The notes under the pieces were generated by a model. That model ran no database searches and had not been told where the DNA came from. It worked only from the letters and a program-made list of their open reading frames with translations. 64,000 nt of DNA from positions 1 through 64,000 of IMG/VR virus record IMGVR_UViG_3300026311_000001, one strand, 5' to 3'. Positions 43,992 through 45,972 of this stretch are shown here, one piece after another (position 1 is the stretch's first letter; the number at the start of each line of letters is the position of its first letter). Source of the stretch: a virus. Both the position numbers and the translations under genes were made by a program.

Positions 43992-44054
43992 AGGTTTTAT
44001 CCCCTCGCCAAAGAAGACCCTCTCCTTTAGGGGAGGGATGAATTTGGCTATTTT

Positions 44055-44297
44055 TTAATTCCATATTAAACCACCTTGATTATAATATTTTTCTATGTCT
44101 TTTGTCTTAAAATATTCTTTAAGTTTTGTTGAACCATAGCAAATATATTTACCATAGCTGAACATTCCTTTACAGATATATTTTTTTCCTTTAACCCAAA
44201 GTGAACTACCCACCCACAGCAAAGCTGATGAGTGGGCTTTCGCTCCTAATGTGTAAAAAGAGCTGGCTCTGTTTAAGAAGACAACCAGTGACTCCAT
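44055..44297 (-). pseudogene. IscB-like C-terminal fragment (distal half of the ORF)
   Basis: ..WVKGKKYICKGMFSYGKYICYGSTKLKEYFKTKDIEKYYNQGGLIWN* parallels the fragment at 11055..11306. The N-terminal half of the ORF is a translated IS hairpin. Confidence 0.35.
44204..44253 (-). repeat. 50-nt IS-end hairpin, copy 1 (direct repeat of 45573-45622)
   Basis: CCCACCCACAGCAAAGCTGATGAGTGGGCTTTCGCTCCTAATGTGTAAAA appears in both copies. Here GTGAACTA precedes it on the plus strand, which on the minus strand is the ...TAGTTCAC terminus right after the hairpin. Confidence 0.65.
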
Positions 44298-44321
44298 TAG
44301 GTGAAATTGTGGGGCAGTGAA

Positions 44322-45500
44322 CTACCCACCCACGCCAAAGGCGATGGGATGGGCTTCATGGGTCAAAGCTCCTTCTACTGAAGGCAACGTACCATGATTT
44401 TTTAGTGTATGTTCCGTACACAAATGATTGTTTAAAGCAAAATTTTTGATATTTATGGAAGCGTTTAAATCCCGGTCAAGAACAGAACCACACTCAGGAC
44501 AAGACCATTCACGGTCTTTGAGTGTAAGTTCTTTGTTGATATACCCACAGCCTGAGCATGTTTTCGAGCTGGGTTCAAACCTTCCAATGCGAAGTATATT
44601 AACTCCGCTCCATTTTGCTTTATATTCAAGCATGGTTACAAACATTCCCCAACTGGCATCTGAAATAGAACCAGCTAAACGATGGTTTTTTACCATACCT
44701 TTAATGTTTAAGTCTTCCAAAGCAATAGATTGGTTCTCTCGTATTAACTCCGTGCTAACTTTATGCAGAAAATCATTTCTTTGGTTTGCTACTTTTTCAT
44801 GTAACAAAGCAACTTTATGTTTACGCCTTTTCCCTTTATTTTTTGAATACTGGCGTTGGTTGTATTTTAGTTTATCCTGTGCTTTACGTAGGTATTTAGG
44901 GTTATCATATTCTTCACCATTTGAAGAAACTATATATGATTTGATTCCTAAATCTAACCCTACCGTTGTTTCTTCTTTTATTGGTTGTGATTGTTTTTCA
45001 ACCTCGCCTGTTTCACATAGAATAGAAACAAAATATTTACCTGTTGGTGTACGGCTTATTGTAGCCTGTTTAATATCTCCTTTTATAGGTCGATGTAGGA
45101 TAACCTTAATACCTTTTTTAAATTTAGGTATGAATATCCTATCACCATCTAAGCGTACTGATTGCGGTATATTAAAAGACTGCTTACCCCTACCTTTTTT
45201 CTTAAACTTGGGGAAATCATTTTGCGCTTTAAAAAAGGCTGTATATGCTTTATCTAAATTTGTTATTGACTGTTGCAAGGATTGGCTATTAACCTCTTTC
45301 AACCATTCGTATTCATTTTTTAGATTAGTTAATCTTTTATGTAGCGCAAATAAAGAATGGTTTGTCTTATCTTTAGCGTATTCAGTCTGCTTAAAAGCCA
45401 AAGCGTTATTATACACAAACCTTGCACAACCAATATGCTTATTGATTAACTCAGCTTGCGGGGCTGTTGGTGATATTTTGTATTTATACGCTCTTAACAT
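44322..45500 (-). CDS. tnpB: TnpB (IS605 OrfB-type RNA-guided nuclease)
   Basis: VGLDLGIK (D), IALEDLNIKGM (E), CSGCGY....REWSCPECGSVLDRDLNASINI (Zn finger plus D). Likely ATG at 45500, 5 nt after a TATATTTG box. Confidence 0.9.
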   Translation of the reverse strand: MLRAYKYKISPTAPQAELINKHIGCARFVYNNALAFKQTEYAKDKTNHSLFALHKRLTNLKNEYEWLKEVNSQSLQQSITNLDKAYTAFFKAQNDFPKFKKKGRGKQSFNIPQSVRLDGDRIFIPKFKKGIKVILHRPIKGDIKQATISRTPTGKYFVSILCETGEVEKQSQPIKEETTVGLDLGIKSYIVSSNGEEYDNPKYLRKAQDKLKYNQRQYSKNKGKRRKHKVALLHEKVANQRNDFLHKVSTELIRENQSIALEDLNIKGMVKNHRLAGSISDASWGMFVTMLEYKAKWSGVNILRIGRFEPSSKTCSGCGYINKELTLKDREWSCPECGSVLDRDLNASINIKNFALNNHLCTEHTLKNHGTLPSVEGALTHEAHPIAFGVGG

Positions 45501-45504
45501 ATTG

Positions 45505-45512
45505 CAAATATA
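45505..45512 (-). promoter_or_regulatory. -7 box TATATTTG immediately upstream of tnpB
   Basis: Plus-strand CAAATATA. The same arrangement occurs at 51641-51648. Confidence 0.4.
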
Positions 45513-45535
45513 CAAAATTTACAGAAACATACTAA

Positions 45536-45877
45536 TTAATTTAAATAAATTATCTTGTATTGGGTCGCTTTTATCCCACCCACAGCAAAGCTGATGAGTG
45601 GGCTTTCGCTCCTAATGTGTAAAACTTTTGCCTTTCTTGGACTACAAGGCATCAAAGGTTCACCTCTTTGATTTAAAACATAAACAGATACACTCGTGTT
45701 CTGTTTCCGATTTGACTCGGATTGATCCCCATCGGGATTGTTTAAGAACCGTTTGTCATTTTTCAGACCAATCTCAACACTAAGAGTTTCCTCTTTGTTT
45801 AATTGAGAATTCACAGAGCAAAGGACTTGGGAAGTATCCCCTGGTGTGTTCTTTAACTTTTTCTTAAACTTCTGCAT
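45536..45877 (-). pseudogene. IscB N-terminal (PLMP-domain) fragment interrupted by the tnpB element
   Basis: ..VSVYVLNQRGEPLMPCSPRKAKVL carries the PLMP motif characteristic of the IscB N-terminus. The frame then runs into the IS hairpin (HIRSESPLISFAVGG). Confidence 0.5.
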
Positions 45878-45972
45878 AAAACCTCTATTAAAATTTTAAG
45901 CTCCCTAATCAACCAATTACCCTTGAAAGTCACCTCTCAAGCCCTTCCCCTTTAGGGAAGGGTGATTGACTT
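45878..45972 (-). ncRNA. conserved structured leader upstream of the IscB fragment (omega-RNA 3' portion candidate)
   Basis: Minus strand: GTCAATCACCCTTCCCTAAAGGGGAAGGGCTTGAG...GTTGATTAGGGAGCTTAAAATTTTAAT. It is paralogous to 24157-24245 (GTCAATTACCCCTTGA..TCAAGGGGCTTG...GTTGATTAGGGAGCTTAAAAATTAAAA). Confidence 0.4.

Follow-up and report, generated by a model that had tools for sequence, protein, structure and literature searches.

A relic IscB transposon in a phage genome, probably inactivated by a tnpB-only IS200/IS605 lineage

What becomes of an IscB gene of which only the two ends remain, separated by an intact tnpB element and by a second, much shorter copy of the ends of that element? 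The locus that raises this question lies in a stretch of viral DNA of 64,000 nucleotides (nt) (positions 1 to 64,000 of IMG/VR record IMGVR_UViG_3300026311_000001, hereafter the window), part of a phage genome that is complete at 83,872 bp with direct terminal repeats. We consider it quite probable that a non-autonomous IscB (ISC) transposon was inactivated here by a second lineage of insertion sequences (IS), a tnpB-only, IS608-like member of IS200/IS605. Each of the nine features listed in a preliminary description of the locus can be found in it, though some coordinates and labels needed slight correction, and every feature of the nested arrangement lies on the minus strand, as follows (window coordinates).

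43995..45970, minus: whole IscB-type (ISC, IS200/IS605 superfamily) element, now 1976 nt owing to nested insertions, delimited by homology to L004 and L001
45720..45970, minus: HEARO RNA (IscB omega-RNA scaffold), full length, Rfam RF02033
45942..45963, minus: subterminal hairpin, omega-RNA end, CCCTTCCC taaa GGGGAAGGG
45620..45877, minus: open frame ending in the IscB PLMP motif (parent residues 1-86), from tblastn and Pfam RRXRR
45619..45622, minus: TTAC target/cleavage site of the tnpB element, from the empty site in L004
44317..45618, minus: intact tnpB-only IS200/IS605 element (IS1341/IS608-like), 1302 nt, from the empty site and the shared terminus
45575..45618, minus: left end of the tnpB element, with 12 nt, the guide tetranucleotide AAAG and a bulged 12-bp hairpin (45602-45575, from DNA folding)
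44322..45500, minus: tnpB gene, 392 amino acids (aa) and stop, from Pfam, with TATATTTG just before it at about 45513-45506
44317..44365, minus: right-end hairpin and TAGTTCAC terminus (3' part of the predicted TnpB omega-RNA), from DNA folding
44253..44316, minus: spacer, 64 nt, ending in TTTTTAC
44201..44252, minus: 52-nt mini-element, made of left-end nt 1-44 and the last 8 nt of the right end, with TTAC before it
44055..44200, minus: IscB C-terminal tail (parent residues 409-455) and stop codon, from tblastn at 81%
44018..44037, minus: distal subterminal hairpin of the IscB element, CCCTCCCC taaag GAGAGGG, kept in L004 and L001, from DNA folding

The 2101-nt region that holds the whole arrangement recurs with 100% identity in five independent metagenome assemblies (three from JGI and two from ENA, one of them an 83-kb contig), and is therefore not an assembly artefact. 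A megablast search of GenBank phages with the locus as query gave 0 matches.

Both outer fragments of the locus come from an iscB gene. The preliminary description had proposed to search metagenomes for the intact parent, and with the 85-aa N-terminal fragment as query we recovered P0016 (455 aa) and about 40 others, intact relatives of 450-487 aa with Pfam RRXRR and HNH domains, the best at 94% identity. When P0016 was compared with the locus by tblastn, only residues 1-86 (94% identity) and 409-455 (81%) were matched, leaving residues 87-408 without a counterpart and no split RuvC domain with inserted HNH; the earlier observation that the HNH and RuvC core is gone is thus correct. The N-terminal fragment ends at 45620, rather than at about 45623 as first placed, and matches Pfam RRXRR at profile positions 1-20 only, with a score of 16.7 bits that falls below the cut-off because just 20 profile positions are left. 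Its open reading frame (ORF) encodes 113 aa, of which approximately the first 52 codons (45877-45720) lie inside the HEARO match, so that most of the apparent N-terminal extension belongs to the RNA gene. The aligned segment of the tail (44198-44058) is followed by the stop codon, and in an exhaustive phmmer search with these 47 aa the matches fall at the C-terminus of IscB-derived proteins. PHROGs gave nothing informative for either fragment. Profile and homology searches thus bear out the IscB origin of both fragments. Elsewhere in the genome we found no intact iscB, but only a C-terminal fragment (parent residues 355-455, at 11007-11303) and, at 24 kb, a stretch matching the first 54 residues. 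The IscB locus is a relic from which no nuclease can be made, and not a functional member of its family.

The transposon around this relic has kept its ends. The window aligns to the intact elements L004 (89-93%) and L001 from GTCAATCACC (45970) to GGATAAA(A) (about 43995), with flanks that differ in all three contexts, showing that this is a mobile unit. The hairpins near its two ends are alike, the distal one (44037-44018) resembling that at 45963-45942 as had been noticed before, and similar end hairpins have been described for ISC elements (PMC4810608); it is thus a discrete unit with subterminal hairpins that occurs in different flanks. The hairpin at 45942-45963 has a DNA folding energy of -11.4 kcal/mol (z -3.0), and the HEARO alignment has it as its first stem. 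What had been called a structured leader is indeed structured, but is the 5' part of a full-length HEARO RNA at 45970-45720, which matches all of RF02033 (model positions 1-211 of 211) with 103.7 bits against a gathering score of 83 (E 3.8e-21). HEARO RNA is the IscB omega-RNA (Meers et al. 2023, bioRxiv 10.1101/2023.03.14.532601), and it lies here immediately upstream of iscB. While the ends of the IscB element and its omega-RNA are intact, the HEARO RNA of this locus is an orphan, because the locus can no longer yield IscB and the rest of the genome holds no intact iscB either.

The element inside iscB can be delimited base by base, since an empty site is available for comparison: in L004, AAAGTTTTAC is joined directly to TAAAACAAGG, and in the window the same AAAGTTTTAC is followed by ACATTAGGAGCG. 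The insertion therefore lies exactly 3' of TTAC, without target duplication. The left-end hairpin reported earlier is present, but the left end starts at 45618 with its hairpin at 45602-45575, and 45622-45619, which had been counted with it, are the target TTAC. As first described, the right end stops at 44317 with TAGTTCAC; we set this boundary by the terminus common to six copies in the genome and by the junction of the mini-element with IscB sequence. The terminus occurs at six places in the genome and, together with a related hairpin, in 17 other viral contigs, and the right end is 93% identical to a paralogue at 50477-50568. Each end of the tnpB element has an imperfect subterminal hairpin that follows a guide tetranucleotide, AAAG on the left and GAAG on the right, and the right-end region (44317-44365) has a DNA folding energy of -12.7 kcal/mol (z -3.65). 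An exact 23-nt core of the left end is common to 7 viral loci and 3 loci of metagenome-assembled genomes. TTTAC precedes the left end at 9 other loci; it stands before that of the full-length relatives L103, L104/L107, L105, L108, L119 and L120 (L121 ends at a contig end), and TTTAT serves as target in two related lineages (L029/L030, and a paralogue at 51.7 kb). AAAG and TTAC are the guide/cleavage pair of IS608 (PMC3201880).

The preliminary description took tnpB (45500..44322) to be intact, and this agrees with its three Pfam domains (HTH_OrfB_IS605, 6e-17; OrfB_IS605, the RuvC domain, 4e-24; TNB zinc ribbon, 6e-24), with its alignment over aa 3-370 to the ISDra2 TnpB structures 8bf8/8exa (E 4.6e-67) and with the motifs DLGIK, ALEDLN and DRDLNAS. 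TnpB looks functional. Conservation of the right end suggests a TnpB omega-RNA there, and TnpB would then take the first ~16 nt of the spacer as guide.

Beyond the tnpB element lie the 64 nt of the spacer (44316-44253, given as about 60 nt of unique sequence before) and a repeated hairpin. An exact 50-nt repeat (45624-45575 and 44258-44209, 100% identical) is composed of 6 nt of flank, TTTTAC, and nt 1-44 of the left end, and cannot be attributed to chance in 84 kb. The identical second copy of a 50-nt hairpin that had been reported is thus exact over 50 nt, but 6 of these are flank and the element proper has 52 nt, at 44252-44201. Neither is it part of a longer simple duplication, since the shared flank is limited to 6 nt, 4 of which are obligatory target. 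The preliminary description had seen in the repeat a conflict with the rule that this family leaves no duplications. That conflict disappears, because what is repeated is the left end of the element itself, both copies having their TTAC target, and no target-site duplication is involved.

The 52-nt mini-element is short and gene-less, and is bounded by the ends of its parent IS, with a DNA folding energy of -10 kcal/mol (z -3.2). Over its first 44 nt, the lineage-specific first 6 nt included, it shows 100% identity to the left end next to it, after which the 3' arm of its hairpin, GTGGGTGGG, passes straight into TAGTTCAC. The same 9-nt GTGGGTGGG is the 3' arm of both the left-end and the right-end hairpin, so that a deletion between these two 9-nt repeats would reduce a full copy to the mini-element. 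One-hairpin elements of this design (TTTAC, 6-12 nt, AAAG, hairpin, GGGTAGTTCAC) stand alone at no fewer than 8 unrelated phage loci in IMG/VR, their stems co-varying and no tnpB lying within 1.5 kb upstream. All solo copies found in IMG/VR are singletons with hairpin variants of their own, and no set of multiple near-identical copies was found among them; repeated in-situ decay is therefore favoured over an actively spreading miniature transposon. The first 6 nt are common with a full-length lineage in two solo copies, that of the window (tnpB1) and that of L013 (L108), and the hexamer of the L106 solo copy matches none of the full-length copies found. Other short right-end forms also occur in viral contigs, such as a near-perfect palindrome with GTGAACTACC on both arms (L023:1532-1561) and a tandem array of a TTTCTTTACGGGGGTAGTTCAC unit (L125, about 8767-8850, minus strand).

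How the core of iscB was lost can be approached through the edges of the gap. By DNA alignment to L004, nt 260-1222 of the parent gene are missing, that is, 963 nt or 321 codons comprising the RuvC/HNH core. The left edge lies exactly 3' of TTTAC (gene nt 255-259) and the right edge 3' of TTTAT (1218-1222). TTAY preceded by T (TTTAY) occurs 6 times in the 1368-nt parent gene, giving a chance of about 0.4% that the right breakpoint would fall at such a site, and this points to transposase-type junctions at both edges. Since every new junction is of the Y1 TnpA type (a TTAY target followed by a left end, or a right end with TCAC followed by the DNA downstream of TTAY), we infer that tnpB copies landed at both iscB TTTAY sites. 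In the history that we favour, copies of the tnpB element would have inserted at these two sites, and the IscB core would then have been lost by recombination between the copies, or by TnpA-type joining of the right end to the downstream site. One tnpB copy would have collapsed to 52 nt via deletion between the 9-nt GTGGGTGGG repeats. As for the spacer, both of its edges are canonical IS junctions, suggesting a flank carried in from another site; it would thus have been brought along from an earlier location of the element.

Several observations weigh against this history. The spacer has no match in the IscB parents, in the phage's own genome, in viral, metagenome (two scans) or genome contigs searched by exact patterns, or in GenBank phages, where sensitive blastn yielded no hit with E below 6. 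At the right site the available parents have TTAT or TTGT instead of TTAC; among the sequences found there is no allele of the studied phage with an intact iscB or with a single insertion; and no Rfam family matches the TnpB omega-RNA region. A plain deletion at TTTAC/TTTAT microhomology may also have come before the insertions. Two other origins of the spacer were considered and rejected. It is not a remnant of the IscB core, which it resembles neither as DNA nor as protein, apart from 4 residues that match by chance, and a spacer with a second hairpin is not a normal feature of the tnpB family, as the nearest full-length relatives, the three L029, L030 and L031, and the partial copy L093 have one right end each with unrelated flanks.

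If such a plain deletion were the explanation, the IscB core would have been lost independently of a transposase, leaving a small in-frame PLMP-tail gene at whose remaining TTAC sites tnpB and the mini-element were inserted later, with the TTTAY coincidence reduced to TTTA microhomology. We regard this as quite unlikely. Independent IscB deletions that have no IS at the junction do exist (P0038/L010, with TTATT microhomology, P0069/L011 and P0003/L007), and the two fragments, when joined directly, are in frame (963 being a multiple of 3) with the Pfam RRXRR score rising from 16.7 to 22 bits. However, two separate insertions exactly at the deletion junction would be needed, and the 64 nt would still be unexplained, while the in-frame join follows automatically from the phases of the two sites in a frame that is interrupted anyway, and the RRXRR match runs just 4 residues beyond the junction. 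A natural small PLMP-tail protein is rejected, given the intact 455-aa parents at 81-94% identity and a frame that follows from the length of the deletion. The hybrid hairpin had been read as either a minimal left-right joined element or an excision footprint. The former stands, whereas a footprint of a departed full tnpB element is scarcely credible: the hybrid does sit where a full copy could have been, and holds sequence from both ends, but when an IS200/IS605 element is excised the donor is closed again exactly at TTAC, and sequence is neither lost nor gained (PMC3201880), solo copies follow TTTAC at unrelated loci, and the fusion lies at the 9-nt GTGGGTGGG inside the hairpins and not at cleavage sites, favouring slippage or recombination over transposase cutting.

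It also seems rather unlikely to us that the hybrid of 52 nt came by an independent jump as an active miniature transposon (a one-hairpin palindrome-associated transposable element (PATE) or miniature inverted-repeat transposable element), with a 1366-nt unit (tnpB and the 64 nt) inserted or lost separately as a block. Such a block could be exchanged by TnpA cleavage at two left-type sites, or by homologous recombination across the 50-nt repeat, and the Logan contig L109 agrees with the window at 100% on either side but is missing precisely the 1366 nt that lie between the repeats. The solo elements of the same design after TTTAC fit an independent jump as well, as does the single guide AAAG, which would suit both TTAC and TCAC under the IS608 pairing rule (PMC3201880, extended by our own reasoning). 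Nevertheless, that each solo copy is a singleton with its own hairpin agrees better with in-situ decay than with a spreading family, and a TnpA dimer requires a pair of hairpins (PMC3201880). As for L109, this one contig of 1.5 kb was assembled with k=31 and may be a real recombinant or a low-coverage k-mer collapse across the 50-nt repeat, and the five other assemblies carry the full form. A chemistry that goes beyond cut-and-paste, which we find quite doubtful, would combine these elements differently: the right end joined to the downstream TTAY and so deleted the core, the 64-nt flank moved with tnpB (3' transduction), and the 52-nt element, with its single hairpin, has remained a competent substrate, its one guide (AAAG) being able to specify TTAC as well as TCAC. 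If true, the 52-nt element would be the smallest IS200/IS605 derivative, and L109 would mean that the 1366-nt unit is really gained or lost within the phage population.

Apart from this locus, IscB relatives in metagenomes show many independent internal deletions or fusions (L010/P0038, L011/P0069, L007/P0003, P0021 and P0065), including one, P0021, with the PLMP region fused to the C-terminal part of a TnpB. Three such relatives have their right breakpoint within ~8 nt of that in the window (around GATTTATTTTGGG), one of them joined at a TTATT microhomology. We rejected this breakpoint (between DLF and WV) as a deletion hot spot among IscB derivatives, as 3 of about 8 cluster there and the others do not, in a sample biased by the query.

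Altogether the genome carries five tnpB genes, two HEARO RNAs without IscB and one broken TnpA. The only Y1_Tnp match (window 9308-9694, minus strand) is truncated, covering profile positions 3-81 of 121, and retains the HUH motif, but the C-terminal third of the protein, which carries the catalytic tyrosine, is out of frame with stop codons. Further movement would therefore need TnpA in trans. In the related phage contigs L001 and L002 an intact Y1_Tnp adjoins IscB.

Besides the tnpB gene studied here, three further ones lie at 47075-48229 and 50443-51651 of the window and at 64510-65736 of the genome. The TnpB at 50 kb has 80% protein identity to the studied one, with a different left hairpin, the guide AAAA and the target TTTAT, a co-variation of guide and target as the IS608 rule predicts. 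Extra right-end termini are found at 6550-6564 and 82455-82469; four of the five other termini in the genome read TAGTTCAC, and the 47-kb copy reads TAGTTTAC. The second full-length HEARO RNA (window 23975-24243, minus strand, 117.3 bits) has no IscB behind it, the iscB frame stopping after ...VVYV. It is an insertion of ~270 nt, with a truncated serine-recombinase ORF ending exactly at one side of it and the ATG of a 374-aa TnpB-like gene lying exactly at the other (neighbours 22850-23974 and 24224-24523); in L112, with the plain IS607 layout, the recombinase stop codon is followed directly by tnpB. We rejected this HEARO as the guide RNA of the 374-aa TnpB, because seven relatives of that protein have no HEARO upstream. 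The IscB C-terminal fragment at 11007-11303 (plus strand, 45% identity to P0016) adjoins a remnant at 10281-10583 that resembles the left end of the 47-48 kb tnpB element and adds to the OMEGA debris. Just upstream of the IscB element, the gene for a DUF7666 protein (ORF 45952-47082) contains approximately 18-25 tandem 27-nt repeats at 46123-46805 (minus strand) encoding SGDRSASQA-type units, and at its 3' end this gene overlaps the place of the guide of the IscB omega-RNA. A type-P3 twister ribozyme is matched by Rfam at 5550-5620 (minus strand, 48.1 bits against a gathering score of 39.9).

The components of the locus are all of described kinds (ISC/IscB, IS608-like tnpB and PATE-like derivatives), and what is new in the nesting, in the deletion bounded by TTTAY and in the remnants with one hairpin is the instance and not the biology. 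Like ISC/IscB transposons with HEARO omega-RNA, the outer element has HEARO directly upstream of iscB and overlapping its start (Kapitonov, Makarova and Koonin 2016, PMC4810608; Meers et al. 2023, bioRxiv 10.1101/2023.03.14.532601), and it shares with them the PLMP N-terminus, the C-terminal tail, similar hairpins at both ends, different flanks elsewhere and the lack of its own tnpA; unlike them, it misses the 963-nt RuvC/HNH core and has other IS elements inside. The tnpB element resembles IS608/ISDra2-type tnpB-only elements (IS1341-like, 'IS605B') in its insertion 3' of TTAC without duplication, the AAAG 5' of the left hairpin, a right cleavage site (TCAC) few nt 3' of the right hairpin, a TnpB homologous over its full length and a conserved 3' region as the likely omega-RNA. 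It differs from IS608 in that TCAC is paired here with the guide GAAG where IS608 has TCAA, and from the IS608/ISDra2 type in having no tnpA in cis and in the 64 nt of foreign DNA and the truncated second copy that come after it. The mini-element is like PATEs and REP-like IS200/IS605 derivatives in being short and gene-less and in keeping transposon-end sequences. PATEs as described are longer and keep both hairpins, unlike this element of 52 nt, in which a single hairpin serves as both ends and of which the copies found are all singletons. PATE-like elements have been reported in the same families (Meers et al. 2023, bioRxiv 10.1101/2023.03.14.532601).

The locus is thus a clear but ordinary case of mobile-element nesting and decay that leaves current understanding unchanged. 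It offers a natural example of the interaction of OMEGA elements, one RNA-guided-nuclease transposon probably destroyed by another with an orphan guide RNA left behind, and the genome of 84 kb shows that phages can carry many OMEGA and IS200/IS605 elements. The value of the findings lies in annotation and in providing material for studying IS200/IS605 side reactions. For the IS family itself, they indicate a recurrent route of decay, the collapse to a single hairpin via a repeat common to both ends.

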